Positions 1,644 through 25,070 of a DNA stretch of 64,000 bases are shown here, piece by piece (the first letter of the stretch is position 1; the number at the start of each line of letters is the position of its first letter). Both the position numbers and the translations under genes were made by a program. Origin of the DNA: Planctomycetota bacterium. GTDB taxonomy: Bacteria > Planctomycetota > JAJSAM01 > JAJVHW01. Under the pieces are notes generated by a model. That model was not told the origin of the DNA and made no database searches. It saw only the letters and a program-made list of their open reading frames with translations. The DNA is taken from contig JAJRVY010000360.1 of assembly GCA_024277065.1 (NCBI GenBank), positions 3,450-67,449 of the forward strand, given 5' to 3'.

Positions 1644-3446
1644 TCAGAGGGTGCGCTCGAGAACGTCCGGCTCCTTGTCGTTGTCCATGCGCAGCAGGTG
1701 ATCGAGTGAAAGCGGGCCCGCGCCGCGCCAGACCTGCAGCACCAGCGTGAAGAAGATGAACGCCGTGAACTGGAAGCTCAGGTTGTCGCCCACCAGCGCG
1801 CCGCCGGCCGGGCCCGCGATGTGTACGACGACGGCGCCCAGCAGGATGATGGCGTTGACGGCGGCGGAGAGCCGCGTCACGAAGCCGAGCGCCAGGCTTG
1901 CGCCCCCGATGACGTGCGCGAAGACCACGGACCACGCGATCAGCGTCTGTCCCTGTCCCAGATCCTGGCCCAAGGAGAGCGTGTGTTCGAGATCGGACAT
2001 GTTGACGATGAAGTACACGCCCTTGATGACCAGGGCGATGCCGAGGTAGATGCGCAGCACGTCCATCGGCCGCACGTGCTTGAGACCGGGGATCAGATCG
2101 CGCAGCGGCTTGCGGCCCTCGAGCGCCTTGCGGCGCCGTGCGACCGCGGTGTCGAACTCCTCGGCGGCGGCCGCCTCGGCTGCCGGGCTGAAGCGCACGG
2201 CGAAGGTTGCGAACGAGCACAGGAAGACGAGGCCGCCCAGGATCAGCAGCGCCTGCGGATACGAGATGGCCTCGGCACGGAACAGGAAGCCCGCGCCGAC
2301 GGCACCCATGTTGCCGCCGGCGCCGACGATGCCGGCCACGGCGCCGATCGCCTTCTTGTTGATGAACGGCACGATGGAGTACGTCGCGCCCTCGGACATC
2401 TGGACGAAGAGGCTGAAGATGATCATCACGGGGATGGCGAGCGCCAGCACGCGCATCTGCGAGAAGAAGATGAGCGCGACGCCCTCGACCATGAGCGCGA
2501 TGAAGAGCCACCTGACGCGACCGCGGAGCCCGCCCTTGCGGACGAACCGGTCGCTGATGAAGCCGCCCAGCGTCCGTGCGAAGATGTTCATCAGGCCGAA
2601 GAGACCGGCAACGAGCCCGGCGGTCTTGATGCCGAGGTCGAAGTAGTCCATGTAGTAGAGCGCCGCGATGTTGTTGATCGTGAGCTCGATTCCGAAGCAC
2701 GCGGCGTAGATCACGAACAGCGCCCATACGCGGGGGTCGCGGAGCGCCATGCGGAAGCCGCCCTTGGTCCTCTCCTTCGTGGGCATCTCGCCCTTGGCCC
2801 GCAGTTCCTTGAAGTTGCCGTCGGGCAGGTCCGTCGTGAACGCGTAGTAGGCCAGGCCGGTGACGAAGCAGACCCCGCCGGCGACGACCATGGATGCGCG
2901 CCAACTGAACGCCTGGGAGTAGTCGAAGGCCACCCACGCGCCGAAGAGCAGCGGCATCACCATCTGGGTGACGCCGCCACCGAGGTTGCCCCAGCCGGCG
3001 GACGTGGCGTTCGCCGTGCCGACACAGTTCGGCGCGAACATCACCGACGTGTGGTACTGGGTGATGACGAACGAGGCACCGATGACGCCGATGCCGAGCC
3101 GGAACAGCAGGAAGCTCTGGTAGCCGGTGGCGAACCCGATGCACATGACCGGGATCGACCCGAACACCAGCAGTCCCGTGTAACAGAGGCGCGGACCGAT
3201 GCGATCGCACAGCCAGCCGATCAGGAGCCGCGCGAAGATCGTGATGGCGACCGAGGCGATGATCGTGTTGCCGATCTGCTCCTTGGTCAGGGAGAGTTCC
3301 TCGCGCACGACCGCCATCAGCGGCGCGATCCCGAACCACGCGAAGAAGCACAGGAAGAATGCGAACCACGACATGTGGAAAGCACGCATCTGCCGCGTCT
3401 TCAAGGAGAAGAGATCGATGCTCGTGGCCTTGTTGCGAACGTCCAC
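1644..3446 (-). CDS. narK: MFS nitrate/nitrite transporter (NarK/NNP family) fused to a C-terminal DoxX-like 4-TM domain
   Basis: Residues 1-420 resemble NNP-family MFS transporters (FHMSWFAFFLCFFAWFG, GWGNLGGG, GAGGNMG). Residues about 458-585 (nt about 1692-2075) show the DoxX pattern (LRIYLGIALVIKG, GGASLALGFVTRLSAAVNAIILLGAVVVH, GAGPLSLDHLL). AGGAG lies 6 nt before the GTG start. Confidence 0.85.
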   Translation of the reverse strand: MDVRNKATSIDLFSLKTRQMRAFHMSWFAFFLCFFAWFGIAPLMAVVREELSLTKEQIGNTIIASVAITIFARLLIGWLCDRIGPRLCYTGLLVFGSIPVMCIGFATGYQSFLLFRLGIGVIGASFVITQYHTSVMFAPNCVGTANATSAGWGNLGGGVTQMVMPLLFGAWVAFDYSQAFSWRASMVVAGGVCFVTGLAYYAFTTDLPDGNFKELRAKGEMPTKERTKGGFRMALRDPRVWALFVIYAACFGIELTINNIAALYYMDYFDLGIKTAGLVAGLFGLMNIFARTLGGFISDRFVRKGGLRGRVRWLFIALMVEGVALIFFSQMRVLALAIPVMIIFSLFVQMSEGATYSIVPFINKKAIGAVAGIVGAGGNMGAVGAGFLFRAEAISYPQALLILGGLVFLCSFATFAVRFSPAAEAAAAEEFDTAVARRRKALEGRKPLRDLIPGLKHVRPMDVLRIYLGIALVIKGVYFIVNMSDLEHTLSLGQDLGQGQTLIAWSVVFAHVIGGASLALGFVTRLSAAVNAIILLGAVVVHIAGPAGGALVGDNLSFQFTAFIFFTLVLQVWRGAGPLSLDHLLRMDNDKEPDVLERTL

Positions 3447-3470
3447 GCGGTGACTCCTGCCGGGGGTGGT

Positions 3471-4685
3471 TCAGGCGGCCGGTACGGCCGCGGACGAGGG
3501 CGCCGCTGAAGGGGCTGCCGCAGACGCGGCGGTCGCGACGGACGGAGGAGACGGGCGCGTGGCGCCCATCGCGGTGCGTCGCAGCCCCTCGATGGCCACC
3601 AGGAAGAAGAGCGCGACGAGTCCGACGACCGGGGCGAGTTCCCAGACCCCGGCGCGCGGCGTCTCACCCATGAGCGGGGGGCCGGCGAGGACGTAGAGAT
3701 CGACGAGCCGGCCGATGAGGACGAGGACGGATATGCGCACCAGCGCAGTGCGGCTGCGCCGCAGCCTGCGGAAGAGGAGCAGCGCGAACGGGAGTGCGCT
3801 GCAGAGCAGGCACGAGAGCTTCGTGAGCAGCCCCCACTCGTTCGACAGCCGAGCGATGTACCAGGGCGTCTCCTCGGGCAGGTTCGTGTACCAGACGAGG
3901 AGGTACTGGCTGTACCAGATGTAGCCCCAGAACAGGCACAGCGACATGAGCAGCGCTCCGAGATCGCCGTACTGCGCCGCCGTCACCTCGCCGCGCCGGT
4001 CGGCGGCGACGACGAGCACGATGGCCGCGGCCATCCCGGCGACGCCGAGTCCGGCCAGGGTCACGAGGGCGTAGATCGTGCTGAACCAGTGGGGGTCGAG
4101 GGACTGCAGCCAGTCGATGCTCGCGAGCGACCACGTCGGCGCGAAGAGCAGCACGAAGATGGCGGCGGTGCGCAGACGCCTGTGGCGGTCACCGGGTGCG
4201 TCGTCGCGGCTCTGCTCGGAGACGCGCACGAGGGCGCGCGTCGCCAGCAGCCACACGGTGAAGAACACGACGAGCCGCACCGAGAAGAACGGCGCGTTCA
4301 GGTACGAGCTCTTGGCGGTGAGGATCGGGTCGATGTCCACGATCGCGGAGTGCGACCACTCGTAGAGCGAGTGCACACCGGCGACGAGCACGAGTCCCAT
4401 GACCGCCGCAGCCGGCAGAGCGCGCGCCATCGCACGCGGCACGGACTCGAGGCGCCGCGACCAGCGCGCACCGGAGAGGCTGAGGAAGGCGAGCCCCACG
4501 GGGCCGGCGAGCGCGAGCCCCGTCAGCGCCATGAAACCGATCAGGAACCCGCTCCAGCTCCGCTGCGGGGCGATGAACAGCCCCGCCACGAAGATCGCGG
4601 CGGCGAGTCCGCTCACCCATTTGAGGGACGTGATCGTGGACCGCGCCCAGCGCGCGTCCGGGGGGCGCAGGAACGAAGAGGTCAC
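3471..4685 (-). CDS. actF: Alternative Complex III subunit ActF (NrfD-like polytopic membrane protein)
   Basis: 404-aa polytopic membrane ORF, last gene of the act cluster. ATGA overlap with actE. Confidence 0.75.
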   Translation of the reverse strand: MTSSFLRPPDARWARSTITSLKWVSGLAAAIFVAGLFIAPQRSWSGFLIGFMALTGLALAGPVGLAFLSLSGARWSRRLESVPRAMARALPAAAVMGLVLVAGVHSLYEWSHSAIVDIDPILTAKSSYLNAPFFSVRLVVFFTVWLLATRALVRVSEQSRDDAPGDRHRRLRTAAIFVLLFAPTWSLASIDWLQSLDPHWFSTIYALVTLAGLGVAGMAAAIVLVVAADRRGEVTAAQYGDLGALLMSLCLFWGYIWYSQYLLVWYTNLPEETPWYIARLSNEWGLLTKLSCLLCSALPFALLLFRRLRRSRTALVRISVLVLIGRLVDLYVLAGPPLMGETPRAGVWELAPVVGLVALFFLVAIEGLRRTAMGATRPSPPSVATAASAAAPSAAPSSAAVPAA

Positions 4686-5359
4686 CTGTTCTCCTCCTTG
4701 CCGGGAGCGGTCTCGCCCGGCGCGCCCTCCTGCGGCGGGGTGGCCTCCTCGGGCGCCGCCGCCTTGGCGGTCTGCAGCGCGCGCACGTGACGGATGACGG
4801 CCCAGCGATCGGCCGCGCTCAGACGCGTGCGCATGGCGGGCATGTTCCCGCTGCCCAGCGTGAGCACGTGGAACATCTGTCCGTCCGGCATCTGCATGGC
4901 GTTGATGCCCTTGAGGGGGGGCGGCGGCAGCATGCCGCGCAGGACCGCCGTGCCCTGTCCACCGCCCGCCGCGTCGTGGCAGGGAACGCAGTGGATGCGG
5001 AAGACCTCGGCGCCGCGCGCCTGCGCCGCCGCGTCGTCGGCCGCGAAGGGCGACGACAGCTCGCGCCCGGCGCGCTGCGCCTCAGCGTCGTCCGGGCCGT
5101 AGCGGAACGGCGTCACGCCCCGCGGCACGACACCGGCGACGAGCGCCTGCTGCGAGTAGCCGCCCGGGAGCGCGCCGGCGACCGTCTGCGACTCCGTGGC
5201 GGGCGACACCGACATGTCGGGCATGAACTCGAGGTTGCGACGCGAGTGGTCGGGCTCGACGATCCACCGCACGCCCACGAGAGTCACGACGACGAGCGCG
5301 AGCAGCGCAGCGAAACGGCCGACCAGCGGTGGCCCGGTCCGGGCGGCGGTGGGCGTCAT
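4682..5359 (-). CDS. actE: Alternative Complex III monohaem cytochrome c subunit ActE
   Basis: Single CVPCH haem motif, N-terminal membrane anchor, position after actD. ATGA overlaps on both sides. Confidence 0.8.
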   Translation of the reverse strand: MTPTAARTGPPLVGRFAALLALVVVTLVGVRWIVEPDHSRRNLEFMPDMSVSPATESQTVAGALPGGYSQQALVAGVVPRGVTPFRYGPDDAEAQRAGRELSSPFAADDAAAQARGAEVFRIHCVPCHDAAGGGQGTAVLRGMLPPPPLKGINAMQMPDGQMFHVLTLGSGNMPAMRTRLSAADRWAVIRHVRALQTAKAAAPEEATPPQEGAPGETAPGKEENR

Positions 5360-5885
5360 CGGTCGCCCTCGCGCTCGACGATGTCACGGTGCTCGACGGC
5401 GCCCGTGTCCCGCCAGAGCTGTGCGAGTTCGGTGTCGGTGACCGCCGCGTCGGGGCGCGTCACGACGAGCGCGAAGCGGTCGTCGGTCACGCGCAGGTCG
5501 CGGATCACGCCGCTGCGTCCGGGCAGCATACCGGAGCGCAGCAACAGTCCGAAGATGGTCGCCAACCCGGCGAACAGGATCGTCATCTCGAAGGCGACCG
5601 GGGCGAACGCGGGGAGCGAGTTCCAGGGCTTGCCGCCGACGTCGATGGGCCAGTCCACGGACGACGTCCAGTACTGGAACCACAGCGCGAGACCGAGCCC
5701 CAGCAGGCCGCCGGCCAGGCACGCTGCCGGGAGACGCGAGCGCGGAATGCCGACGAGGTCGTCCACGCCGTGGATGGGGTAGGGCGACATCACGTCGAGG
5801 ACGGTCAGTCCCGCTTTGCGACTCGCCCGCAGGGCGCCCAGCAGTTTCTCCTCGCTCGTGTAGAGCGCGACGTGGATGCGGCGAC

Positions 5886-5889
<4 letters not shown>
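5356..5889 (-). CDS. actD: Alternative Complex III subunit ActD (DUF3341-type)
   Basis: 177 aa with a soluble N-terminal domain and two TM helices. Sits in the conserved position between actC and actE. Confidence 0.75.
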
Positions 5890-7290
<1,401 letters not shown>

Positions 7291-7301
<11 letters not shown>

Positions 7302-7932
7302 GGCGCTCTCCCGAGGCGTGCTGCGGCCTGTTGCGCACATCGGCGAGGTACGTCACGCCGGGATCGACGTTCAGCTCGGTGAGGATCGAGTACGCGCGCG
7401 GTCCGCGCGCGAGCCCGGCGGCGGCGCTCTCCGTATCGTGCAGATCGCCGAAGGTGATGGCGTCGGCGGGGCAGGACTGCTGGCATGCCGTGCGAATGTC
7501 GCCGTCCACCAGCGGCACTCCGGTTCGCGCCGCCTCGGCTTTGGCCTCCTGGATGCGCTGCACGCACATCGAGCACTTCTCCATGACGCCGCGCGAGCGC
7601 ACGGTGACGTCGGGATTGAGCGCGAGGTTCTGCAACTCGTCGGCGCGGGGGTAATCGAACCAGTTGAAGCGGCGCGTCTTGTACGGGCAGTTGTTCGCGC
7701 AGTAGCGCGTGCCGACGCAGCGGTTGTAGATCTGCTGGTTCAGACCGTCCGTGCTGTGCACCGTGGCGAGCACGGGGCAGACGGTCTCGCACGGCGCGTT
7801 CGCGCAGTGCTGGCACATCATCGGCTGGTGCACGGCCTGCGTGTCGTCGCCCTCGCCCGTGAAGTAGCGATCGACGCGCATCCACGTCATCTCGCGGTGG
7901 CGCCGGACCTCGTCCTTGCCGACGCAGGGCAC
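7291..7932 (-). CDS. actB: ActB C-terminal part (4Fe-4S ferredoxin-like B2 module); continues in frame from 7966..10314 across a TAG
   Basis: Fe-S motifs [26 protein letters not shown] and CSMCVQRIQ...CQQSCP. Homology actually begins right after the TAG ([17 protein letters not shown], nt 7965 downward). Same reading frame as 7966..10314. Confidence 0.85.
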
Positions 7933-7965
7933 GTTGTTCTCGGACTGGCACGCGACGACGCAGCC

Positions 7966-10314
7966 CTAACAGCCGTTGCAGGCCGTGAGATCGACGACGA
8001 GGCCCCAGCGCGGTCCGTCGTTGTCGTGGTCCCGCGTCCAGAGCGACGCCTCGGGGCCCTCATGGCGCGGGATGGCGTGCGCGGGGTTCTCCTGCAACTC
8101 GGAGAGCGTCGTGACGACCGCCACGCGGCGCGTCGAGTCGCGCGCCGTCGCGAGGTGCGCGGGAACTTCCATGCGGTGGTGATCCTGCGTCGTGGCCAAC
8201 TCGACGGAGTCGCCCGTCGCCCGGACCGTGACTGCGCGGCCGCTGCGCCGCAGACCCTGTTCGCGAAGCTCGAGGAGCGCGGCGGCGCGCGCCCCGACGG
8301 TCTCCCCCTCGCGGACGGTGAGGCGACCCTCGAGCCAGCTCGGGCCGATCCTGGAGAAGCGGTCCGTGCCGCTCACGCCGTAGCCCGCGGCCACGGCGAC
8401 GACGCCGTCGTGCTGGCCGGGGACGAGCGTCGCCGGCAGTTCCACCGCCGCCCCGTCGTCGGCCACCACGCGTACGACGTCACCGTCGCTGACGCCGAGC
8501 CGCGCGGCCGTCGCCGGAGAGAGCTGCGCGCAGTTGTCCCAGACCAGCGTCGTGATGGGGTCCGGCATCTCGTGGAGCCACGCGTTGTGTGCGTGGCGGC
8601 CCTCCGGGACGCCGACCTTCGCGTGGACGACGAGTTCGAGCGCGCCCCCGTCGGTGGGCGTGGGGCGCGGCGCCGCGGCGAGCAGCGCGCGTAGTCCCGC
8701 ATCGTTCCACCGCGGCGTCGCGCCGGGTGCCGGCCGGGCCTGCACGAAGCCGGACTCGAGTGCCCGGTCGAAGAGCACGCCGGCCGCGCCGGCGCCCTGG
8801 GTGCGCCGCGCGAGCACACTCTTCCAGTGGTCGCGCACGAGGGCGTGGTCGTCACGGGAGTCGCCGCTCCAGCGCGCCAGCGAGGCGCGCAGGGTGCGCG
8901 CGGAGCGCAGCGGCGGCACGGTCGGCTGCGAGAGACTCAGTTGCCCCGTGATCGCCTCGGCGTCGTTCCACGACTCCAGCTCATGCGGGGCGGGGGCGTT
9001 CGCCGCCGCCTGCGCCGAGGTCTCGTCCGGGGCGCAGGCCGTCGTCACGACGAACGGGACCTTCGACAGCGCGTCGCGGAAGCCCGCGCCGTCCGCGAGT
9101 TCGTAGACGGGATCGAGGTCGTGGACGATCAGCACCTTCACGGCGCCCGACCGCATCTCGTCGATGAGGCGCCGCAGCGCGCCGTCGTCGCCGCGGCGCA
9201 CGAATGACGGCCGCGCGAGATCGAGCGTCGCGCCGTAGCTGCCGAGCATCTCGTTGGCGAGCACGGCGAGAGCCTGCGCCCCGGGGTCGTCGCTCCCGCA
9301 GATGACGAGCGCGCGGCCCTTGGCTGCCCACAGCTCCGCGGCGAGCGCGAGGAGCGCTTCCGCGTGGGGCGCGCCGTCGGCCTCGGCCGCCAGATCCACG
9401 CGGCGGCCGGCGTGCCCGGCGATGGCGATGGTGAGCGTGGCGAGGGCGGCGCGCAGCTCAGACGGCGTCACCACGAGGCGTTCGTCCGCGGCGCTGCCCG
9501 TGATCGACATCGCGGACTCGAAGTGCACGTGCCGCGACATCGGCGGACTCGGCGTCGCGGTCACCGCATCGTCCGGCCGCCGCCGCGCCGCGTAGGACTT
9601 GGCGAACTCGACCGGCGACAGCCACGTGCCGAGGAAGTCGGCGTCGAAGGCCGCGATCACGTCGGTGCGCTCGAAGTGCATGCGCGGCAGCGCGCGCACG
9701 CCGAACGCGGCATCGTGGGCGTCCAGGAGCGCCGACGCCGAGCGCGGATCCCATTCCACGTGCGTGCCGCCGTGCTGCGCCAGGAAGCGCCCGATCCAGT
9801 CGCGCGTGCTGGGGCTCGTGACGGTGCGCGAGAGGATGCGCACGCCGCCGCCCGCGCTCGCGAGCGCCTCCGTGACGGCCGCGTCGAGCGCTTCCCACGT
9901 CGCGCTCTCGCCGCGTAGCACGGCGCCGTCGGTGCGGCGGCCGTCGTAGAGGTCGAGCAGCGACGCCTGTCCGACGGCGCAGAGTCCGCCGCGCGAGACG
10001 GCGTGATCGGGGTTGCCCTCGAGTTTGATGGGGCGCCCGTCGCGGCAGCGCGCGAGCACGCCGCAACGCGCTTCGCAACCGGCGCACGTCGTCGCGATCC
10101 AGAACGGCCGGCCGGCCTGGACGCCTTCGGCGGCGTCGAGGCGCGGGACGACGAGGCGCACCGGGCCGCGCGTGCAGCCGGCGAGGGTTGCCGAGGCGAC
10201 GCCGAATCCGGCGAGCTTCAGGAACGTCCGCCGCGAGGCGTTGTCGCGCTCGACGGGCAGCACGATGTCGTCGCAGCGGGCGGGATCGGTGGTGGAGCCG
10301 TTGGGGTCACGCAT
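7966..10314 (-). CDS. actB: ActB N-terminal part (molybdopterin-oxidoreductase-like B1 module with Tat signal), ended by an in-frame TAG
   Basis: SRRTFLKLAGFGVASATLAGC Tat-type signal and a molybdopterin-oxidoreductase-like fold. The ORF ends ...DLTACNGC followed by TAG, inside a CxxCxxCxxxC cluster motif. Confidence 0.85.
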   Translation of the reverse strand: MRDPNGSTTDPARCDDIVLPVERDNASRRTFLKLAGFGVASATLAGCTRGPVRLVVPRLDAAEGVQAGRPFWIATTCAGCEARCGVLARCRDGRPIKLEGNPDHAVSRGGLCAVGQASLLDLYDGRRTDGAVLRGESATWEALDAAVTEALASAGGGVRILSRTVTSPSTRDWIGRFLAQHGGTHVEWDPRSASALLDAHDAAFGVRALPRMHFERTDVIAAFDADFLGTWLSPVEFAKSYAARRRPDDAVTATPSPPMSRHVHFESAMSITGSAADERLVVTPSELRAALATLTIAIAGHAGRRVDLAAEADGAPHAEALLALAAELWAAKGRALVICGSDDPGAQALAVLANEMLGSYGATLDLARPSFVRRGDDGALRRLIDEMRSGAVKVLIVHDLDPVYELADGAGFRDALSKVPFVVTTACAPDETSAQAAANAPAPHELESWNDAEAITGQLSLSQPTVPPLRSARTLRASLARWSGDSRDDHALVRDHWKSVLARRTQGAGAAGVLFDRALESGFVQARPAPGATPRWNDAGLRALLAAAPRPTPTDGGALELVVHAKVGVPEGRHAHNAWLHEMPDPITTLVWDNCAQLSPATAARLGVSDGDVVRVVADDGAAVELPATLVPGQHDGVVAVAAGYGVSGTDRFSRIGPSWLEGRLTVREGETVGARAAALLELREQGLRRSGRAVTVRATGDSVELATTQDHHRMEVPAHLATARDSTRRVAVVTTLSELQENPAHAIPRHEGPEASLWTRDHDNDGPRWGLVVDLTACNGC

Positions 10315-10315
10315 G

Positions 10316-10981
10316 TCAGTAGTGACACCTCGCGCAGTCGATGGAGACGTGGTCGCCGCCGGGCGTCGCCGCCGGGGCGGCGTTCCTGTCGGCGGGTGTC
10401 GTGCGGTGGCAGTCCATGCACCAGCCCATGGAGAGGTCCGCGAACTGACGGACGCGCTCCATGGACCTGACGGGGCCGTGACACTGCGCGCACGCCAGGC
10501 CGCGGGCCACGTGCACGCGGTGGTCGAAGTAGACGAAGTCCGGGAGCTGGTGCACGCGCACCCACTCGATGGGGCGCCGTTCCCGTTCCGGGTCCGGCTT
10601 GAGCTCGTCGTCGAGGCCCATTGCGTCGTACAGCTTGCGCATCTCCGGCGACACGATCAGGCGCGGCTCGCGCTCCTCGGCGGCGGCCAGTTCACGCTCC
10701 TCGAGGATCGTGTCGAACGGGGCCGTCACGTGCTGGTGGCACTGCATGCAGACCTCGGCTGGCGGGATGCCCGCGTGGCGGCTCTTCTCGGCGCCGTAGT
10801 GGCATGCGAGGCAGTCGATCTGCAGCTCGCCCGCGTGGATGCGGTGCGAGTACGCGATGGGCTGCAGCGGCTCGTAGCCCTGGTGGTTGCCCGGCAGCCG
10901 GATCTCGGTCTCCGCGAGGACGGCGCCGAGTCCGACCACGAGCGTGCAGGCGGCGAACGCGATGGGAGCGGTACAGGACAT
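10316..10981 (-). CDS. actA: Alternative Complex III pentahaem cytochrome c subunit ActA
   Basis: Five CxxCH motifs (CLACH, CMQCH, CAQCH, CMDCH, CARCH) and an N-terminal anchor MSCTAPIAFAACTLVV. The ATG shares 1 nt with the narK stop (TGATG). Confidence 0.85.
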   Translation of the reverse strand: MSCTAPIAFAACTLVVGLGAVLAETEIRLPGNHQGYEPLQPIAYSHRIHAGELQIDCLACHYGAEKSRHAGIPPAEVCMQCHQHVTAPFDTILEERELAAAEEREPRLIVSPEMRKLYDAMGLDDELKPDPERERRPIEWVRVHQLPDFVYFDHRVHVARGLACAQCHGPVRSMERVRQFADLSMGWCMDCHRTTPADRNAAPAATPGGDHVSIDCARCHY

Positions 10982-12618
10982 CAGCAGGGCACCTCGGCTC
11001 CCTTGCGTGCGTAGAACCACCAGTTCACGACGAGGCAGGAGGCGTAGTAGCCGGCGAAGCCGTACAGCGCGTACTGCGGTGTGCCGGCCTTGATCTGCGT
11101 GGCGAAGATCTTGGGGATCAGGAACGCGCCGTAGGCGGCGATGGCGGAGGTCCATCCGAGCACCGGACCCGCCTGCTCCTTGGGGAAGATGATCGGGATC
11201 ATGCGGAACGTCGAGCCGTTGCCGATGCCCGTCGTCGCGAAGAGGACGATGAAGAGGATCAGGAACGGGAAGAAGTACTGTTCGGGCTGCGCCGACTGAC
11301 TCGCCAGCGAGACGAAGTACCCGGCGCCGATGGTCGCGGCGATCATGGCGAGCGTGTCCCAGTGGGTCACGCGCGCTCCGCCGAGTTTGTCCGAGAGCCA
11401 GCCGCCGACGGGCCGGATGAGTGCTCCGACGCCGGCACCGAGCCATATGTAGTTGGCGGTCACGGGGGCCGCCGGGTTCGTGATCGCCTCGGCCAGCGCC
11501 TGCCCGTTGGCATCGACGCGGATCACGCCGAAGACGTCGTCGAGCAGCTTGGGGAAGGCGTTGGCGTAGCCGATGAACGAGCCGAACGTCATCGTGTACA
11601 GCCACGTCATGATCCAATTGTGCTTGTTGCGGAAGATCGAGAACTGGCCGAGCAGGTTCTCTTTCGTCTCGCGCGGCGTCAGGAAGCGCATGGCGGCCAG
11701 CGTCACGAGCACCGCGATCACGAGGATCACGAAGATCTTGAGCAGCACCGGGAACCCGCCCCACGGGACGATCAGCAGGATGATGCCGACCGTCGCGCCG
11801 ACGTATCCGAGCAGCGTCAGCCACAGGTACTTGGCGACCGCCATCGGCGTCGCGCCGCACTTGTGCTGCGGCAGGTTGTTCATGAGGAAGAACGCCAGGA
11901 CCAGGAAGAAGGCCAGGATCGGCACCCACACGAGGCCCGCGTTCTGCACCCAGATCTGCTTGGCGACGCCGTCCTTGACGATCTCGTAGGGATCGCCACC
12001 CAGCTCTCCGAAGATCGAGCGCGTGATGGCCCACGGCAGCAGGAACTGCATCACGCTGACGCCGAGGTTGCCGAGACCCGCGTTGAGTCCGAGGGACAGC
12101 CCCTGCATGCGCTTCGGGAAGAAGAAGCTGATGTTGGACATGGACGACGCGAACGCGCCGCCGCCGACGCCGGAGATGGCGGCGAGGACGATGAACACCC
12201 AGAACGGGGTCGTCGGGTCCTGCAGCGCCAGGCCCGCGCCCATGGCGGGAATGATCAGCAGCAGCGTCGTCATGAACTTGACGTTGCGCCCGCCGCAGAT
12301 GGCGATCATGAACGAGTTCGGGATGCGCAGCGTGGCGCCCGCGAGACCGGCGACGGCCGGCAGCGTGAACAGCAGCGCGCGATAGTAGTCGCCGACGTAC
12401 GGCTGACCCTCGTGCATGAACGTGAAGTCGAACAGCGACGTGTCGGCGAAGTGCAGTGCCTGGATGAACTTCGCCAGCATTCCCCAGTAGAGCCAGACCG
12501 AGAACGCGCAGAGCAGGTTCGGGATCGAGATCCACAGGTTGACGTTGGCGATCTTCTTGCCGGTGGACTCCCAGAACGAGTCGTCCTCGACGTCCCAGTG
12601 CTCGAGCGTGCGGCTCAT
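10981..12618 (-). CDS. narK: MFS nitrate/nitrite antiporter NarK
   Basis: 545-aa MFS protein immediately after narI (4-nt overlap). NarK-like N-terminus and 12+ TM pattern. Confidence 0.85.
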   Translation of the reverse strand: MSRTLEHWDVEDDSFWESTGKKIANVNLWISIPNLLCAFSVWLYWGMLAKFIQALHFADTSLFDFTFMHEGQPYVGDYYRALLFTLPAVAGLAGATLRIPNSFMIAICGGRNVKFMTTLLLIIPAMGAGLALQDPTTPFWVFIVLAAISGVGGGAFASSMSNISFFFPKRMQGLSLGLNAGLGNLGVSVMQFLLPWAITRSIFGELGGDPYEIVKDGVAKQIWVQNAGLVWVPILAFFLVLAFFLMNNLPQHKCGATPMAVAKYLWLTLLGYVGATVGIILLIVPWGGFPVLLKIFVILVIAVLVTLAAMRFLTPRETKENLLGQFSIFRNKHNWIMTWLYTMTFGSFIGYANAFPKLLDDVFGVIRVDANGQALAEAITNPAAPVTANYIWLGAGVGALIRPVGGWLSDKLGGARVTHWDTLAMIAATIGAGYFVSLASQSAQPEQYFFPFLILFIVLFATTGIGNGSTFRMIPIIFPKEQAGPVLGWTSAIAAYGAFLIPKIFATQIKAGTPQYALYGFAGYYASCLVVNWWFYARKGAEVPC

Positions 12619-13304
12619 CGTTCACCCCGTGCGGCCGGTCCGCCGCGGTTCCATATGACGACCTGCGGGCGTCGCCACAGGTACATGTTGGGAATGACAA
12701 GGACGTGCACGAGGCGCGTGAACGGGAAGAACGCGATCAGCACGAACGCATTGACGATGTGCGTCTTCACCAGCCACGGCAGGGGCGCCACGAAACTGAC
12801 GTCCGGCGAGAAGGCGACCAGCGACCACAGCCACGGGCTGGCCGACGTGGCGAACCACGACGAGCCCCAGCCGTGGAAGTAGGCGATCAGTACGCCGCTC
12901 ACGACCTGCACGAGGAGCAGCGCGTACACGACCCAGTCGGCGAGCGTGCTCACCCTGCGGACGCGCGAGTTGCGCAGGCGCCGCACGACGACGAGCACGA
13001 GGCCGACCAGGGTCATCAGGCCCAGCATCAGTCCGGTCGCCTCGAGCAGGAACAGCCGCCACGGAGCGGCGTTCCAGCCGAGGATCAGTTGCGGCGTGAG
13101 GAACGCGACGACATGCCCCGTCAGCACGGTCAGGATGCCGTAGTGGAAGGGCACCGAGCCCCAGAAGTGCTGCTTGTTCTCGAGGAACTGCGAGGACAGG
13201 CTCGAGTACGTGAACTTGCTCTGGCGGTAGCGCTGCACGGTCACGACCAGGAACAGCACCACTGCGACATACGGCAGGACGCCGAACAGGAAGAAGTCAC
13301 TCAC
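12615..13304 (-). CDS. narI: respiratory nitrate reductase gamma subunit NarI (dihaem b, quinol oxidising)
   Basis: 229 aa, 5-TM pattern with conserved His residues. Typical position after narJ. Confidence 0.9.
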   Translation of the reverse strand: MSDFFLFGVLPYVAVVLFLVVTVQRYRQSKFTYSSLSSQFLENKQHFWGSVPFHYGILTVLTGHVVAFLTPQLILGWNAAPWRLFLLEATGLMLGLMTLVGLVLVVVRRLRNSRVRRVSTLADWVVYALLLVQVVSGVLIAYFHGWGSSWFATSASPWLWSLVAFSPDVSFVAPLPWLVKTHIVNAFVLIAFFPFTRLVHVLVIPNMYLWRRPQVVIWNRGGPAARGER

Positions 13305-13878
13305 TCTCCACCTCCCCGCCGTAGTGGCGTTCGAGGACGCGCGCGGTTGCCGAGAGCAGCCCGCGGTAGGGATTGCCGCCCGCGCCGGCGAGCTTCTCGC
13401 ACATGCCGCGCACAGCCGGGCCCGCGAAGCGCACGGCGAGCGCGCCGGCCGACGGACCCTCGAGTCGCGCCAGAACGCGCAGCACGTTCGGCAGGTGGTC
13501 GGCGAGCTCGGTGCCCGGATCGACGGCCGCGTCGCGGCAGAGCTGCTGCGCGCGCACGAGGAACGTGCCGCGCGCGTACTGCTCGCCGTAGAGCTGCCAG
13601 CCGACCTCCAGCGCGCACACGGGGTTCAGCTCGAACGTCCGTACGTAGAGCTCTTCGCACGCGGCGCGGTCCGACGTGCGCAGGTGCTCCTCCAGCGGCG
13701 TCAGGTCATCTGCGGCGTCCGGGCAGTCCGTGGCGACGACGGCGAGCGCCGCAGCGGCGCCGGCCGCGGCGTCCTCGCGCGGGTAGCCGTACAGCGTGGC
13801 GAGCGCGTCGAGCGCCGGGAAGACGAGCGCCTCGGGGGCGGGCGCCCGAGAGCCGATCGGGAGCGACGTGGCCGGCAC
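13297..13878 (-). CDS. narJ: nitrate reductase assembly chaperone NarJ (TorD family)
   Basis: 193 aa, located between narH and narI, with a NarJ/TorD-like sequence. Confidence 0.8.
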   Translation of the reverse strand: MPATSLPIGSRAPAPEALVFPALDALATLYGYPREDAAAGAAAALAVVATDCPDAADDLTPLEEHLRTSDRAACEELYVRTFELNPVCALEVGWQLYGEQYARGTFLVRAQQLCRDAAVDPGTELADHLPNVLRVLARLEGPSAGALAVRFAGPAVRGMCEKLAGAGGNPYRGLLSATARVLERHYGGEVESE

Positions 13879-13879
13879 G

Positions 13880-15370
13880 TCAGTTCCCCCGCGCCGGGGC
13901 GTTGCGGAAGCCGAAGCCCACCGAGCTGCGGTGTGTGTGCGGATCCTCCATCATCTCGATGGCCATCTCGCGCTGGAACGGCGGGATGATGCAGCGCTCG
14001 TCCATGTTCGCCAGCGTCGTCAGGCGGTAGATGCGGTCGGCCTGCTCCCACGTGCAGTCGGCCTGTGCGAGGGCGCGTTCAGCGGTCTCCTTCGTGACGT
14101 CGCCGACCGTCAGGTGGCGGCGCACCAGGCGCACGGCCCACTGCTTGCGCAGCGCGTAGCGCACGACGCCGTCGTTGCCGCCGCCGAACAGCGAGCCGAA
14201 GTACTGGATGGGCGCGCGCGCTTTCTCGATGTCCGCGAAGAGGTCGTCGATGTCGTTGTCGATGACGTCGTTCTCCTTGCTCGACATCACCGGCAGGAGG
14301 GGCGGGACGTAGAAGAGCATCGGGAACGTGCGGTACTCGATGTGCGGCGGCAGCGCGATACCGAACTCCTTCACGAACGCGTACACCGGCGAGCGCTGCG
14401 CGGACTCGATGATGCCTTCGTGGATGCCGTTCTTGCGGGCCGCCTCGAGGACGTGCTCGTCGAACGGATCGAGGATCATGCGCCGCTGCGCGTCCACGAG
14501 CTCGTCGTCCGGCAGGTTCGCGATCTCGGGCAGCATGTCGGCGTCGTAGAGGACGTTGCCGATGTAGCGGATGCGGCCGACGCAGGAGTGGAAGCAGGCC
14601 GGCGCCTGGCCCGTCTCGAGACGCGGGAAGCACAGGATGCACTTCTCGGACTTGCCCGTGGACCAGTTGTAGTACGTCTTCTTGTAGGGGCAGGCGGCGA
14701 CGCAGGCGCGCCATGCACGGCAGACCTGCTGGTTGATCAGGACGATGCCGTCCTCACCTCGCTTGTAGAGCGCGCCCGACGGGCAGCTCGCGACGCAGGC
14801 CGGGTTCAGGCAGTGGTGGCAGATGCGCGGCAGGTAGAAGAACACGAGCCGCTCGATGGACATCATCTGCAGGCGCTGGTTGGGCGTCAGCGCCTCCATG
14901 TTCGGGTCGTTGCGCGCGTAGATCTGCGAGCCGCCGAGGTCGTCGTCCCAGTTGGGGCCCGCCTCGACGTCGATCTGCTCGCCCGTGATCTTGGAGATGG
15001 GCACGGCGACGGGCTGGTCGTCGCCCTCGGGAGCGTTGAACAGCTCCTTGAAGTCGTACGTCCACGGCTCGTAGTAGTCGTCCATGCTCGGCATGGACGT
15101 GTTGTGGAAGATGTTGGGGATGATGCGGGCCTTGCCCGTGGAGCGCAGGCTGAGCTTCTTGCCGTCGGTCTTCCAACCGCCGCGGTAGCTCTCCTGATCC
15201 TCCCACTTCGTCGGATAGCCCGTACCGGGCTTGGTCTCGACGTTGTTCCACCACATGTACTCCGTGCCTTCGCGGTCGGTCCACACGTTCTTGCAGGCCA
15301 CCGAGCACGTGTGGCACCCGATGCACTTGTCGAGGTGGAAGACCATCGAGACCTGTGAGCGGACGTCCAT
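13880..15370 (-). CDS. narH: respiratory nitrate reductase beta subunit NarH
   Basis: Starts MDVRSQVSMVFHLDKCIGCHTCSVACKNVW. Cys clusters CHHCLNPACVASCP, CRAWRACVAACP and CILCFPRLE...CFHSC. The upstream part of track ORF 13880..16906 is an artefact. Confidence 0.93.
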   Translation of the reverse strand: MDVRSQVSMVFHLDKCIGCHTCSVACKNVWTDREGTEYMWWNNVETKPGTGYPTKWEDQESYRGGWKTDGKKLSLRSTGKARIIPNIFHNTSMPSMDDYYEPWTYDFKELFNAPEGDDQPVAVPISKITGEQIDVEAGPNWDDDLGGSQIYARNDPNMEALTPNQRLQMMSIERLVFFYLPRICHHCLNPACVASCPSGALYKRGEDGIVLINQQVCRAWRACVAACPYKKTYYNWSTGKSEKCILCFPRLETGQAPACFHSCVGRIRYIGNVLYDADMLPEIANLPDDELVDAQRRMILDPFDEHVLEAARKNGIHEGIIESAQRSPVYAFVKEFGIALPPHIEYRTFPMLFYVPPLLPVMSSKENDVIDNDIDDLFADIEKARAPIQYFGSLFGGGNDGVVRYALRKQWAVRLVRRHLTVGDVTKETAERALAQADCTWEQADRIYRLTTLANMDERCIIPPFQREMAIEMMEDPHTHRSSVGFGFRNAPARGN

Positions 15371-15474
15371 GGTGTTGTCCTTCTTGCTTGGTGTTCGAAG
15401 CTCGGATCGTGGCGGGCGGCGAGGGGGCGGGAGCGGGGCGGTGGCGGACGCGGCGAGACGCGGCGAGACGCGGC

Positions 15475-16527
15475 TCACCACACGAGTTCGGGCAGCTTGC
15501 GCACGTAGATCTGCGTGTCGCGGTTGCAGCCCGTCGGGCCCCAGTAGTTGAAGTGGAACGTGAACTGCCCGTAGCCGCCGGCCATGAGGTTCACCTTGAG
15601 GCGCGTGCGGGTCATGCTGTTGTGACCGCCCGCGCGCTTGTGTCCGCGCAGCGGCGACTTCGGGATCGAGTACGTGCGCTCGGGGGAGTGGTACTGGATG
15701 CAGATGCCGCGCGGGATGCGCGCACTGACGACCGCGCGCGTCACCACGACGCCGTTGTCGTTGTGCACCTCGACCCAGTCGTTGTCCACGATGTCGAGGG
15801 ACTCCGCGTCGGTCTCGTTCATCCAGAGCGGGTCGCAGCCGCGGCCCAGCGTGGTCATGCGCTCGTTCTCGCCGTACGTCGAGTGGATGTGCCACTTGCC
15901 GTGTGGTGTCAGATAGTTCAGCTCGAGCGTCGGCCCGACCTTCTCGCTGAAGCGCAGGTCGGCGAACTCGGCCGGCGGCGGCCCCGGCTTGTACGTCGGG
16001 ACGTGCTCGCCGAACTCCAGGTAGAGCGGGTGGTCGAGATAGAGGTGCTGGCGTCCGGTCAGCGTGCGCCAGGGCACCATCCGCTCGCGGTTGTAGGTGA
16101 ACGGCGCGTACGCGCGGCCGCTGTTGGTGAGCCCCGACCACATGGGGCTGTTCAGCAACCGCCGCGGCTGTGCCTGCAGGTCCGCGAACTGCACGCGCAC
16201 GTTGCGGTTGCCGTCCGCGAGATCGGCGAGCGGCAGGCCGACCTTCTCCTCCATGTCCTTGTACGAACGCCACGCCAGTTCGCCGTTCGTGACCGTGGCG
16301 AGCACGAGGATGACGTTGGCGACGTCGCGGGCGCGCTCGAGCGAGAGATGCTCGGCGCCGTCGATGGTGCGCGAGGGGTTCGTCCGCACGAGCTCGTCGT
16401 GGACGTCGGTGATGTCGTAGTGCGTGCCGTGCGCGCCGAGGCCGTTCTTGCGCGGGAGATGGCCGTACGAGATGTACTTCTCGTAGACGTTCTTGTAGTC
16501 GCGCTCGACCACCGCGAACTTCGGCAT
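15475..16527 (-). CDS. narG: NarG C-terminal part; continues in frame from 16570..19116 across a TAG
   Basis: [22 protein letters not shown]... aligns with the NarG region after the GECDLIPGKT segment. Homology continues upstream to nt 16569 ([14 protein letters not shown]). Same frame as 16570..19116. Confidence 0.9.
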
Positions 16528-16569
16528 CGTCTTGCCGGGGATCGGCTCGCACTCGCCGCGGTACCAGTC

Positions 16570-19112
<2,543 letters not shown>

Positions 19113-19116
<4 letters not shown>

Positions 19117-20009
19117 CGGGTGGTTCCCTTCACGAGCGGCCGGCGCACGGCCCGGAAGCGGCGGCGCCATATGAGGTCGAACAGGACGAGCGCGCCCATC
19201 ACCCCGGCGATGCCGGCGATGAGGAACTCGAGCGGCCCCTGCTTGGTCGCGGGCGGCCCGGCCTCGGCGCGCGATTTCAGGTAGGCCACGAGCGCGAGGA
19301 CCTCCTCGCCCTCGATGGGCCGGTCCTTGAAGACGGGCTGCATCGTGAGCCCCGGAGGGGCGGCCAACCACGACGCCAGCGCCTTGCGCCCCTCGAGGCG
19401 CGAGAAGGCGTCGGTCAGGTCGGGGCCGAGGCGTCCGCCCCCGAACCCGCCCGTGCCGTCGATGGTGTGACAGCCGAGGCAGGACGGTGCGCCGGAGGCG
19501 ATGGCCTCGGTGCCCTCGAAGAGGCGCTGCCCGCGGTCGATGTCATGCTGCGTGAGCGGCCGGTCGCTGATCTGCAGGCCCTTGAAGCGCGACTCCTCCT
19601 TCGTGGACTCGTAGGCGATCAGCTCGAGGAGCGCTGCCGCGCGCTGGCGCGTCATCCCCGGCAGCGTCGGCATGTAGAGACCGTTGGCCTCCTTGAACAA
19701 CGCCTGGGCGTCCGCATCACCGCTGTCGATGACGCGCTTGGGATCGACGATGAACGTCGTGAGCCACTCGATCGACTGGCGCTCGGCGACATCCTTGAGG
19801 TCCGGCCCCGTGAGGCGCCCGCCGCCGATCGTGTGGCAGCTCGTGCAGTTGAGCCGGAAGTACTCGACCGTCTCCTCGGAGATGTCGGCGTCCTGCGCCG
19901 CCGCGGTTCGTGTCAGCGGCGCGGCGCACGCGAACCCGGTGGCGACGAGCGCGATCACCAGGACTCTGTGCGCAGCCTGTTGTGTGTGCATGGACGCTTG
20001 CGTGTTCAT
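19113..20009 (-). CDS. narC: membrane-anchored dihaem cytochrome c, NarC-like
   Basis: Signal peptide, two CxxCH motifs (CTSCH, CLGCH) and a C-terminal TM helix ([20 protein letters not shown]). First gene of the nar array, the same position as narC in Thermus narCGHJIK. Confidence 0.7.
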
Positions 20010-20092
20010 GGACCAGGGCCCTCCAGCCTGCACCCCCGCGTCACGAACCGCGTGCCGCGCTCGCGGGATGATCTCCCGTTGGCAACGTAAGT

Positions 20093-20107
20093 CTGTTACA
20101 ATAACAG
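20093..20107. promoter_or_regulatory. AT-rich palindrome CTGTTA-N3-TAACAG upstream of narC (candidate operator)
   Basis: Perfect 6-3-6 inverted repeat inside a roughly 30-nt patch of about 35% GC, 84-98 nt upstream of the narC ATG. Function is inferred only. Confidence 0.25.
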
Positions 20108-20269
20108 GGTTACGGCCATCCCGCGGCGCGTGCCCGGAGGTCTCGGGGTGCATCGCGCGGTATGCGGCGCGGCGCGGCGCCGGCGGTGAAACGCCCGCTG
20201 CGGGCGGTTGCGGCACTGCATACCGCGCGATGCGGCGGGTGCCGCGCCGGTGGCGCCGCGCGGGAGCGA

Positions 20270-21649
20270 TCAGGCGCGGTCGAACGCCGCGCGGTCGATG
20301 CCGAGCTGGCGCATGATGCGCTGGAGGGCCGCGCGCGTCAGGCCGCAGCGGGAGGCGGCGTGGGTGACGTTGCCGCCGCACGCGGCGAGGGCGCGCTCCA
20401 CGAACTCGCGCTGGAAACGTGCGAGTGCCCGGCGCTTGCTCTCGTCGTAGTCGCCGGGGGCGTCGTCCTCGAACGTCCAGCGCTCCTCGCCGAGCCCCAG
20501 GTGGTGCGGGAAGACGTGCTCCCCTGCGCACACGACGACGGCCCGCCGCACGGCATTCTCGAGCTCGCGGACGTTACCCGGCCAGTCGTGGCTCGTCAGC
20601 GCGTCGAGCGCCGACGGCGTCATCTCGGGGGCGCGCGCATCGTCGCCGAGGCAGCTCCTGACGGCACGGAGCATGAAGTGCCGGGCGAGCGGCACGATGT
20701 CGCTGGCGCGCTCGCGCAACGGCGGCAGCAGGATCGAGACCACGCGCAGCCGGTAGTAGAGATCCTGCCGGAACTCGCCCGTGGCGATCATCTCCTCGAG
20801 ATCGCGATTCGTCGCGGCAACCAGCCGGAACTCCACCGGCACGTCGCGCGCGCCGCCGAGAGGCCGCACGACCTTCTCCTCGAGTACGCGCAGCAGCTTG
20901 CCCTGGAAACTCAGCGACATCGAGGCGATCTCGTCGAGGAACACCGTCCCGCCGCGCGCCGCCTCGAACAGTCCGCGCCGAGCGGAGTCGGCCCCCGTGA
21001 ACGCACCCTTCTCGTGCCCGAACAGTTCACTCTCGAGCAGCGTGTCGGGCAGCGCCGCGGCGTTGACCGCCAGGAACGGCCGGTCGGCAACGGCGCTGCG
21101 CCGGTGCAACTCGCGCGCGACGAGTTCCTTGCCCGTGCCTGTCTCCCCTTCGATCAGCGCCGGCACGGGCGCGCGCGCCACGCGTCCCACGAGGTCGAGC
21201 ACCGCACGCATGCGCGGGTGCTCGCCGACGATGCGTCGCTCGCCGTCGGTCGGCGGGGCCTCGCGGGCCGCCAGGATCTGGCGTCCGAGGCGCGTGACGA
21301 GTCCGGTGATCTCCTCGTTGTCGAAGGGCTTCGTCAGGAAGTGCGACGCTCCGTGGCGCATGCACCACACGGCCGTCTGGATGGTGCCGAAGCCGGTCAG
21401 GATCACCACCACCGTGCCGGGCCACTTGGCGCCGATCTCCGCCAGTAGCTCGGTGCCCGACATCTCGGGCATCTGCAGGTCGGTGAGGACGAGGTCCACC
21501 GGCTCTCGCGACATGACCTGCACCGCTTCGCGGCCCGAGGCGGCTGTCGCGACCTGCGCGCCCAGTGGTTCGACGAGCAGCCGCAGGCCGAGCCGGATGT
21601 CCGCCTCGTCGTCCACGAGCAGGACGCGCAGGCCGCTGAGCGTCGTCAT
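20270..21649 (-). CDS. sigma-54-dependent response regulator (REC-AAA+-HTH, NtrC family)
   Basis: REC domain (LLVDDE...[10 protein letters not shown]), Walker [15 protein letters not shown] loop ([15 protein letters not shown]) and a C-terminal Fis-type HTH. ATGA overlap with the kinase gene. Confidence 0.92.
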
Positions 21650-23901: not shown

Positions 23902-23920
23902 CAGCCCCCGTACTCTCGGC

Positions 23921-24040: not shown

Positions 24041-24056
24041 CAGCGGGGTGCCGTCC

Positions 24057-24890: not shown

Positions 24891-25070
24891 GGCGTCGCTT
24901 GCGCGAGACGTCCGCGAGGCGACGCCAGGCTACGGGAGCAGATCGCGACACGGAGCACAGCCAGTCCAGAGGCCCGCCCGGCGCGACCCGGCCACACGAC
25001 GCCGCCGCGTCAGGCCATGGGTACCGGGTTGACTACACCGGCCATCTGCGCGTGGCCTGCGCCAGCTCCG

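Follow-up and report, generated by a model that had tools for sequence, protein, structure and literature searches.

The DNA analyzed here (the window) is a stretch of 64,000 nucleotides from a Planctomycetota bacterium (assembly GCA_024277065.1, contig JAJRVY010000360.1, positions 3,450 to 67,449 of the forward strand). On its minus strand, from position 20009 to 1644, 13 co-directional genes follow one another in the order narC-narG-narH-narJ-narI-narK-actABCDEF-narK::doxX, which places the genes of a respiratory nitrate reductase (Nar) and of an alternative complex III (ACIII) in a single array. This layout had been proposed in a first-pass annotation; the coordinates were found to hold and the gene identities are backed by Pfam, NCBIfam and PDB matches. 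Since the window has a GC content of about 70%, its lists of open reading frames (ORFs) are full of spurious frames, and the real frames were picked by their third-position GC content. The genes of the array are the following.

19113-20009, minus strand: narC, membrane-anchored dihaem cytochrome c (two CxxCH motifs, signal peptide, C-terminal transmembrane helix)
15475-19116, minus strand: narG, catalytic subunit, interrupted by a TAG codon (Pfam; match to E. coli NarG)
13880-15370, minus strand: narH, iron-sulfur subunit (Fer4_11, 9e-36; Nitr_red_bet_C, 2e-13)
13297-13878, minus strand: narJ, assembly chaperone (TIGR00684, 1e-11, below the cut-off; position conserved)
12615-13304, minus strand: narI, dihaem b membrane subunit (PF02665, 1e-63)
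10981-12618, minus strand: narK, nitrate/nitrite transporter of the NarK family, 545 amino acids (NCBIfam)
10316-10981, minus strand: actA, pentahaem cytochrome c (five CxxCH motifs; best PDB matches are ACIII ActA chains)
7291-10314, minus strand: actB, fusion of B1 (molybdopterin-like) and B2 (Fe-S), interrupted by a TAG codon (Pfam, PDB, motifs)
5886-7301, minus strand: actC, NrfD-like quinol-binding membrane subunit (6btm_C, E 8e-180)
5356-5889, minus strand: actD (PF11821 ActD, 1.5e-49)
4682-5359, minus strand: actE, monohaem cytochrome c (one CxxCH motif; best PDB matches are ACIII ActE chains)
3471-4685, minus strand: actF, second NrfD-like membrane subunit (6f0k_F, E 1e-43)
1644-3446, minus strand: NarK-DoxX fusion, 600 amino acids (NarK domain of the major facilitator superfamily with a C-terminal DoxX domain; Pfam, NCBIfam)

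The junctions between these genes are tight. The stop codon of narK and the start codon of actA have one base in common (TGATG), and overlaps of 4 nt (ATGA or GTGA) were found at five junctions. Further overlaps amount to 8 nt (narJ/narI) and about 11 nt (actB/actC), and a gap of 1 nt was found for narH/narJ and for actA/actB. The distance from actF to the narK-doxX gene is 24 nt, including an AGGAG. The tight packing reported before, with the TGATG at narK/actA and the 24 nt with AGGAG ahead of the last gene, was thus seen again in the junction check. The spacer between narG and narH has a length of 104 nt (15371-15474, minus strand) and contains a short tandem of two copies of GCCGCGTCTC followed by GCCGCGTCC; the same spacer is about 87 nt long in the closest related genome locus (L001, see below).

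Residues 16-845 of NarG align with E. coli NarG with an E-value of about 1e-273. The N-terminus carries the H-x3-C-x3-C motif of the FS0 cluster and no twin-arginine (Tat) motif, and the enzyme is therefore assigned as a cytoplasm-facing Nar. NarH is a four-cluster Fe-S subunit with the Nar-specific C-terminal domain (Fer4_11, Nitr_red_bet_C). The gene for NarJ lies between narH and narI, a place that is conserved in all related loci. In NarI all four haem ligands (the equivalents of His56, His66, His187 and His205) are conserved, and an Arg is found at the position of E. coli Lys86, so that quinol binding by the predicted NarI is plausible.

NarC contains CxxCH motifs at residues 55 and 177. 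It is 32% identical, over both haem domains, to the cytochrome c encoded directly upstream of narG on the Thermus thermophilus megaplasmid (tblastn), and what had been called NarC-like can now be described as a positional and sequence homologue of Thermus NarC. In Thermus, NarC is needed for the maturation of Nar, binds NarI and appears to carry electrons to Nir and Nor when complex III is repressed (PMC7694296). For the first haem domain of the window NarC (residues 28-134; window 19608-19928), the best match among solved structures was residues 34-139 of 6btm_A (E 8e-9). These residues are the N-terminal sixth-haem domain of Flavobacterium johnsoniae ActA, which is unresolved and mobile. From this match a partnership between NarC and ACIII appears possible.

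The six genes downstream of narK were identified as ACIII genes. For ActA, ActB, ActC, ActE and ActF the best PDB match is the corresponding ACIII chain (6F0K, 6BTM, 6LOD, 8K9E). ActA has five CxxCH motifs and no CxxCK motif, and its matches among solved structures are to ACIII ActA chains only. ActE has one CxxCH motif. ActB carries a Tat motif (SRRTFLK), a lipobox (LAGC) and the molybdopterin-like and Fe-S domains; its frame is broken by a TAG in the first Cys motif. To the subunits QrcA, QrcB and QrcC of the menaquinone reductase Qrc, the ActA, ActB and ActC homologues gave sub-threshold NCBIfam matches far below the Qrc cut-offs. The structure matches, the PF11821 domain of ActD and the lack of CxxCK together assign the cluster to ACIII and neither to an NrfAH-like nitrite reductase nor to Qrc. 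The complex encoded here is most likely a quinol:cytochrome c oxidoreductase, as judged by homology.

The same combination of genes has been described before. In 13 Planctomycetota metagenome-assembled genomes (MAGs), nar was found directly upstream of the same six-gene cluster, which comprises a pentahaem cytochrome (5MHC), a 4Fe-4S/molybdopterin fusion (mbd-4Fe4S), nrfD, actD, 'ccoP' and 'quinol:cytochrome c oxidoreductase subunit 2' (ccoII) (PMC10732223, FEMS Microbiol Lett 2023). The arrangement of the window is the one published there, where it was left uncharacterised, and the pairing, which the first-pass annotation regarded as unusual, is thus not new. The authors found no described complex that matched and suggested a novel NrfAH-like nitrite reductase or respiratory complex; ACIII was not recognized. 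A nitrite reductase would suit the location directly after nar and the presence of a pentahaem cytochrome. Yet five of the subunits best match the corresponding ACIII subunits, ActD matches the Pfam ActD family, and the five haem motifs of ActA include no CxxCK motif of a catalytic haem. On the haem motifs and the solved-structure matches this identity was rejected and is considered scarcely credible, and the assignment to ACIII corrects the published reading of the cluster. In the literature search no paper was found in which ACIII is named as a component of a nar operon.

The first-pass annotation had proposed searching other genomes for conserved nar-act synteny. A genome scan with one genome per species was performed using the N-terminal part of ActB as query, which returned 24 ACIII loci. 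The order nar, narK, actABCDEF was identified in three of the 24 loci, which are the closest (L001), the second (L002) and the fifth (L005) relative; L001 and L005 are labelled as Planctomycetota MAGs and L002 as an unclassified MAG. The array of L001 in addition starts with narC and ends with the NarK-DoxX fusion. The remaining 21 loci, from Vicinamibacterales, Polyangiales/Myxococcota and others, are without nar genes. In the five of these nar-less loci that were checked (L006, L009, L014, L016 and L024), ACIII is followed by COX2/COX1. These distant loci are in line with the earlier premise that ACIII usually adjoins haem-copper oxidase genes.

For the metagenome scan an alignment of four NarK proteins was used as query. 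At least 451 relatives were confirmed and the best 80 of them were kept; 73 loci extend at least 400 nt past the end of narK and were regarded as informative. In 45 of these 73 loci actA lies directly 3' of narK, a proportion that is no unbiased frequency because the metagenome loci were chosen by their NarK similarity. The whole array from narC to actF was found in ten metagenome loci; the others are cut by the ends of contigs or loci. In the 49 linked loci the median of the projected spacer between narK and actA is 14 nt, and 45 of the 49 spacers do not exceed 100 nt. The GC content of the linked loci ranges between 44 and 72%, and the identity of their NarG to that of the window goes down to about 62%. 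All act-linked loci with upstream sequence (15 metagenomic loci and L001) contain narC. With three genome loci and 45 of the 73 metagenome loci, the linkage is thus not confined to this assembly.

In one locus with a NarC-type nar and no directly linked ACIII (L047, 15657-17508), an actC-like and an actB-like gene are located on the opposite strand about 4 kb past narK. In another locus (L045, 654-2348, minus strand) a gene just upstream of and divergent from narC encodes two cytochrome c domains fused to an EB_dh (ethylbenzene-dehydrogenase-gamma-like) haem domain.

The flanks of the array vary among the loci and include Rrf2-family regulators, a flavohaemoglobin, a tricorn-like protease and a beta-eliminating lyase. 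No cox/cco or other oxidase genes adjoin the nar-linked arrays examined. The pairwise distances of NarH and ActC are correlated with r=0.82, a value reached in 0 of 2,000 permutations, although any two genes of the same genomes would correlate. In a neighbour-joining tree of ActC, the nar-linked sequences form one large group with unlinked Vicinamibacterales nested inside, and the cox-linked Myxococcota are placed elsewhere.

The conserved linkage argues for a functional nitrate-respiration module rather than a chance adjacency, because the linkage is kept, the Nar and Act proteins co-diverge, oxidase genes are not adjacent and NarC is a homologue of the Thermus protein. The opposite reading would be an adjacency without functional coupling, in which ACIII serves an aerobic or otherwise unrelated cytochrome c chain and travels with nar, for instance as a horizontally transferred cassette. 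It draws on the classical role of ACIII, which is aerobic or photosynthetic with oxidase genes as the usual context (so the passage of PMC6995999 that cites Refojo et al. 2010), on the nesting of nar-less Vicinamibacterales ACIII within the nar-linked clade, and on an IS1595 transposase just upstream of the block. However, the overlap or very short spacer at narK/actA has been kept over 49 loci in which NarG identity falls to about 62%, no oxidase genes are located nearby and no separate promoter signal emerged from the scan reported below, so that an uncoupled adjacency is considered improbable. The dedicated nitrate-respiration module suggested in the first-pass annotation is hence supported by linkage, co-divergence and the lack of adjacent oxidases; its novelty is not, as the arrangement is found in PMC10732223.

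The NarK-DoxX fusion was found as one continuous match in 13 related loci, for example L001 (16889-18691), L052 (12192-13994) and L027 (712-2487). Its place within the nar cluster varies among the loci. No paper describing such a fusion was found in the literature search.

Two genes of the array are interrupted by amber codons, which were absent from the description in the first-pass annotation.

16570-16572, minus strand: in-frame amber TAG in narG, codon 849 (reading-frame check)
7966-7968, minus strand: in-frame amber TAG in actB, codon 783, within the first Cys motif C-N-G-C-(stop)-G-C-V-V-A-C

Due to these in-frame stops, NarG and ActB are truncated as assembled. NarG ends at residue 848 of about 1213, and the same frame runs on for 364 well-conserved codons. 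Beyond both TAGs the frame keeps its high third-position GC and its strong conservation. The ACIII cluster, which had been called complete, is so with regard to its six genes in the order A to F, but not with regard to the broken actB.

At the column of the narG TAG the relatives have K (17), L, N, R or other residues, and at that of the actB TAG they have S (36) or N (15). With K and S in the relatives, a single base change would turn each TAG into the most commonly chosen codon (AAG and TCG, respectively). In the window TAG is a normal stop codon, which ends gyrA, the NfeD gene directly before the Band 7 gene and several others. The tRNA scan of the window revealed no tRNA gene, hence no local suppressor and no pylT, and no pyl genes were found in it either. 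A recoding of TAG (e.g., as pyrrolysine) was rejected on the basis of the TAG stops elsewhere, the unrelated residues at the two columns and the lack of tRNA and pyl genes in the window. A natural split into ActB1 and ActB2 was rejected as well, as the stop cuts through the CxxCxxCxxxC motif and the relatives all have the fused form.

The identity to L001 was determined to be 0.87 before and 0.90 after the TAG for NarG, and 0.65 before and 0.81 after the TAG for ActB. At otherwise invariant columns the window has no unique change in NarG (239 columns), NarI, NarK, ActA, ActC and ActD, two in NarH and, besides the stop, one in ActB. This tally of 0 to 2 unique changes per protein is within the range of the other sequences. 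Long-standing pseudogene decay was rejected, with conservation equal before and after the stops and almost no unique changes at invariant columns. The two changes in NarH are P91T and N185H, of which N185H affects the CxHC Fe-S motif; both columns are invariant in 36 relatives.

The two isolated lesions stem either from nonsense mutations of very recent date or from errors in the sequence. In the former case the module of this genome would have been inactivated recently and, with NarG and ActB truncated, would be a non-functional relic; this would concern the present copy only and not the function of the arrangement. Such an inactivation has a considerable, if minor, chance of being correct. 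It is suggested by the in-frame TAGs in both genes, by the use of TAG as an ordinary stop in a window with no tRNA gene and by the sense codons that the relatives have at both columns. Other signs of decay are missing, however: identity after the TAGs is as high as before, the unique changes per protein do not exceed those of other sequences, and errors of base calling or assembly would likewise explain two lone stops in otherwise intact genes. Whether nitrate respiration is open to this organism at all depends on the two amber codons.

The co-directional block extends beyond the 13 genes first noted. Upstream of narC it includes a sensor kinase and a response regulator gene, and downstream of the array a CMD/AhpD-like gene. 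The 260-nt region between the response regulator gene and narC holds three features, namely an inverted repeat, an AT-rich palindrome and the element CGGCACGCGGTTCGT.

21646-23940, minus strand: sensor histidine kinase (HAMP, HisKA, HATPase_c; Pfam), upstream of the array and co-directional
20270-21649, minus strand: NtrC-type sigma-54-dependent response regulator (Response_reg, Sigma54_activat, HTH_8; Pfam), upstream of the array
20150-20233, no strand assigned: candidate enhancer (upstream activating sequence, UAS), a 24-nt inverted repeat with GCATAC/GTATGC hexamers (arms 20150-20173 and 20210-20233; inverted-repeat search)
20093-20107, minus strand: AT-rich palindrome CTGTTATTGTAACAG between the candidate UAS and the promoter-like element, of putative regulatory function
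20043-20057, minus strand: sigma-54-like -24/-12 element CGGCACGCGGTTCGT, about 48 nt before the ATG of narC, with the same motif at the same distance in L001
1258-1593, minus strand: CMD/AhpD-like gene (PF02627), 50 nt downstream of the array and co-directional

The CMD/AhpD-like gene is possibly the last gene of the unit. A homologue of it was also observed 3' of actF in L002 (16628-16930) and L077 (10091-10384).

A search of the narC upstream region of the window for the sigma-54 consensus with up to two mismatches gave no match, and the candidate element was found only by comparison with relatives. Its counterpart in L001 is CGGCACGGGATTCGG, at an equal distance from the ATG. The exact motif TGGCAC-N5-TTGC was identified upstream of narC in L031 and L081, and near-consensus elements occur upstream of narC in L027 (GGGCAC-N5-TTGC), L045 (TGGCAT in the -24 region) and L036 (TGGTAC in the -24 region). 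The hexamers GCATAC/GTATGC are found two to three times upstream of narC in the window, L001, L027, L031 and L038, about 30-fold over the background, with a nominal P value that overstates the case since the hexamer was chosen after seeing the data. A string partly similar to the palindrome, GTAAC..GACTTACG, is present in L001. Sigma-54 promoters commonly have a site for IHF or for a regulator at the relative position of this palindrome. Homologues of the kinase and the response regulator flank the array in L031 and L027. In the published Planctomycetota clusters, sigma-54 and NtrC-family (flgS) regulators were likewise described near the cluster (PMC10732223). The elements found here and in the relatives suggest that narC is preceded by a sigma-54 promoter and, further upstream, by an enhancer at which the adjacent NtrC-type regulator would act.

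For the array itself, terminator-like and sigma-70-like sites showed no excess over shuffled sequence. An internal terminator or promoter, which the first-pass annotation had named as a finding that would speak against its view, is not indicated by any terminator-like or sigma-70-like signal beyond the shuffled-sequence level. The Rfam scan gave no RNA family at the gathering score and thus no molybdenum cofactor (Moco) or other riboswitch.

In a subgroup of nar-act loci with lower GC content, Rrf2 regulators flank the array instead of a sigma-54 system (L053, 203-793; L071, 19159-19668; L083, 548-982), and in L081 a flavohaemoglobin gene (19689-20918) was found next to it. The Rrf2 and flavohaemoglobin families include regulators that respond to nitric oxide (NO) and an NO-detoxifying enzyme.

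Genes of this kind also bear on the direction of the reaction. In the reverse direction the enzyme would be a nitrite oxidoreductase (NXR) like that of Nitrobacter, with NarC passing electrons outwards and ACIII engaged in reverse electron flow. NarC-type clusters do resemble the NXR cluster of Nitrobacter (PMC7694296), and the Planctomycetota Nar/Nxr genes of PMC10732223 could not be assigned by direction. On the other hand, NarG of the window is very close to E. coli NarG, with the E-value given above, and far from the solved NxrA (E 4e-22), the Rrf2 regulators and the flavohaemoglobin by some related arrays would fit N-oxide reduction, and no carbon-fixation or oxidase genes are linked. Nitrite oxidation is thus regarded as very improbable.

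With reasonable though by no means full confidence, the array is proposed to be one transcription unit under the control of nitrate and anoxia, in which ACIII would be the quinol:cytochrome c oxidoreductase of an N-oxide respiratory chain. Transcription would start at a sigma-54-type promoter upstream of narC that is probably controlled by the adjacent NtrC-type two-component system. The putative module would combine a cytoplasm-facing NarCGHI of the Thermus type, NarJ and the NarK transporters with an ACIII of the Rhodothermus type. Menaquinol would be oxidized at ActC, and the electrons would pass via the Fe-S clusters of ActB and the haems of ActA and ActE to periplasmic c-type haem acceptors. 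ACIII would hand its electrons to NarC, the dihaem protein anchored in the membrane, to soluble carriers for nitrite, NO or N2O reductases whose genes lie elsewhere, or to both. NarGHI would reduce nitrate in the cytoplasm and may still draw on quinol via NarI, and the NarK proteins would exchange nitrate and nitrite. ACIII would thereby represent the 'complex III' of an anaerobic N-oxide chain in this lineage and not that of an oxidase chain.

Several observations weigh against this proposal. Because its haem ligands and the basic residue of the quinol site are kept in NarI, Nar should not need ACIII. A NarC-type nar without linked ACIII was found in 28 of the 73 metagenome loci and in Thermus, and the number of linked loci is subject to the choice by NarK similarity mentioned above. 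The rest of the 64-kb window contains no nir, nor, nos, bc1 or oxidase genes, and the acceptors are thus not encoded nearby. In addition, the -12 element of the window is non-canonical, and narG and actB each have a premature TAG.

An even closer coupling would be reached if Nar and ACIII formed a supercomplex in which quinol is oxidized mainly by ACIII. In that case electrons would flow from menaquinol via ActC, ActB, ActA/ActE and NarC to the NarI haems and further via NarH and NarG to nitrate. NarC would act as the counterpart of the additional haem c through which ACIII is connected to caa3/aa3 oxidases, and a coupling step at ACIII would be added to nitrate respiration. Several findings are in favor of this idea: narC occurs in every act-linked locus with upstream sequence, Thermus NarC interacts with NarI (PMC7694296), and the first domain of NarC best matches the sixth-haem domain of Flavobacterium ActA (6btm_A), which the pentahaem ActA of the window lacks. 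That domain is membrane-anchored and mobile and has been proposed as the electron shuttle from ACIII to the oxidase (PMC8552683). In a mirror-tree analysis with the shared divergence removed (13 sequences), the partial correlations of NarC with ActB, ActD and ActE were 0.39-0.49 compared to 0.11 with NarI. These 13 sequences, however, may mirror only a shared fast evolution, and the matched domain belongs to a widespread class I cytochrome c subfamily, the next best match being a Sco-cytochrome c fusion. Moreover, NarI seems able to oxidize quinol directly, Thermus has a working NarC-Nar without ACIII, and the 28 loci with a NarC-type nar lack a linked ACIII. A supercomplex of this type is considered unlikely. 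The stricter version, a dedicated ACIII-NarC-NarGHI assembly in which ACIII rather than NarI would be the principal, possibly proton-translocating, entry for quinol electrons and NarC the haem c bridge, in the part of the mobile sixth-haem domain of Flavobacterium ActA or of the haem c of caa3 oxidase, is judged somewhat less likely still. If true, nitrate respiration would include a true complex III step, and its H+/e- yield would exceed that of the classical NarGHI redox loop.

The rest of the window holds housekeeping genes, among them those for GyrA, an NAD synthase, a pyridoxal phosphate (PLP) enzyme, peptidases, the NfeD/Band 7 pair, a second sigma-54 activator and the IS1595 transposase. 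Between the start of the kinase gene and the divergent ORF of this IS1595-family transposase (24048-26132), a 33-nt direct repeat (GCAACTAACACGCTCGAGGGCACGGGAGTCGGC) is present in three copies at 23937-24040. A right-handed beta-helix/NosD-like protein is encoded at 26560-27807 (minus strand), with no other nos genes nearby, and is probably unrelated to N2O reduction.

The proposed N-oxide chain fits to what is described for related bacteria. The Phycisphaerales have ACIII and no bc1 complex, and most Phycisphaeraceae have no cytochrome c or bd oxidases, with narGH, nirK and norB found in several of them (PMC11266412). In Caldithrix, ACIII was proposed as the donor to a periplasmic nitrite reductase (PMC5317091). 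An aerobic role had been given to one planctomycete ACIII from its adjacency to cox genes (PMC6995999). So far, ACIII has been studied almost only beside oxygen reductases or photosynthetic reaction centres. Its presence in nar operons of dozens of metagenome contigs with a wide range of GC content points to a widespread, uncharacterised anaerobic role, which could be cytochrome c-dependent reduction of nitrite, NO or N2O without bc1 or the feeding of Nar via NarC. This bears on the denitrification potential and the energy yield that are inferred from genomes, and the nar-act module provides a concrete target for supercomplex biochemistry.

Compared to the published Planctomycetota clusters (PMC10732223), the window has in addition the gene for NarC, two NarK genes, one of them fused to DoxX, and two amber codons.

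Among characterised systems, the nar part of the array is most readily compared with the narCGHJIK(T) operon of Thermus thermophilus (NCE element), in which a membrane dihaem cytochrome c likewise comes first, followed by narG, narH, narJ, narI and a transporter gene. In contrast to the window, no ACIII genes are found in or after the Thermus operon. There NarC-Nar is thought to stand in for complex III, and the operon is under the control of DnrS/DnrT and DrpAB and not of a sigma-54 system. By its description, the cytoplasmic nitrite oxidoreductase of Nitrobacter likewise pairs a NarG-like enzyme with a periplasmic cytochrome c, through which it is connected to the cytochrome c pool (PMC7694296), but it works in the opposite physiological direction and its cluster has no linked ACIII.

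The act part has the same six subunits in the same order as the ACIII of Rhodothermus marinus (6F0K), Flavobacterium johnsoniae (6BTM) and Roseiflexus castenholzii (6LOD). The pentahaem ActA, the monohaem ActE, the ActB with Tat motif and lipobox and the two NrfD-like subunits are shared with these characterised complexes. Whereas the latter deliver electrons to caa3/aa3 oxidases or auracyanin and are encoded beside oxidase genes, the act genes of the window lie inside a nar operon with no oxidase nearby and with an interrupted actB. The Qrc complex (QrcABCD) of sulfate reducers has the same modular architecture of CISM and NrfD-type subunits; unlike ACIII, it has no counterparts of ActD, ActE and ActF, and its electrons flow from cytochrome c to quinone.

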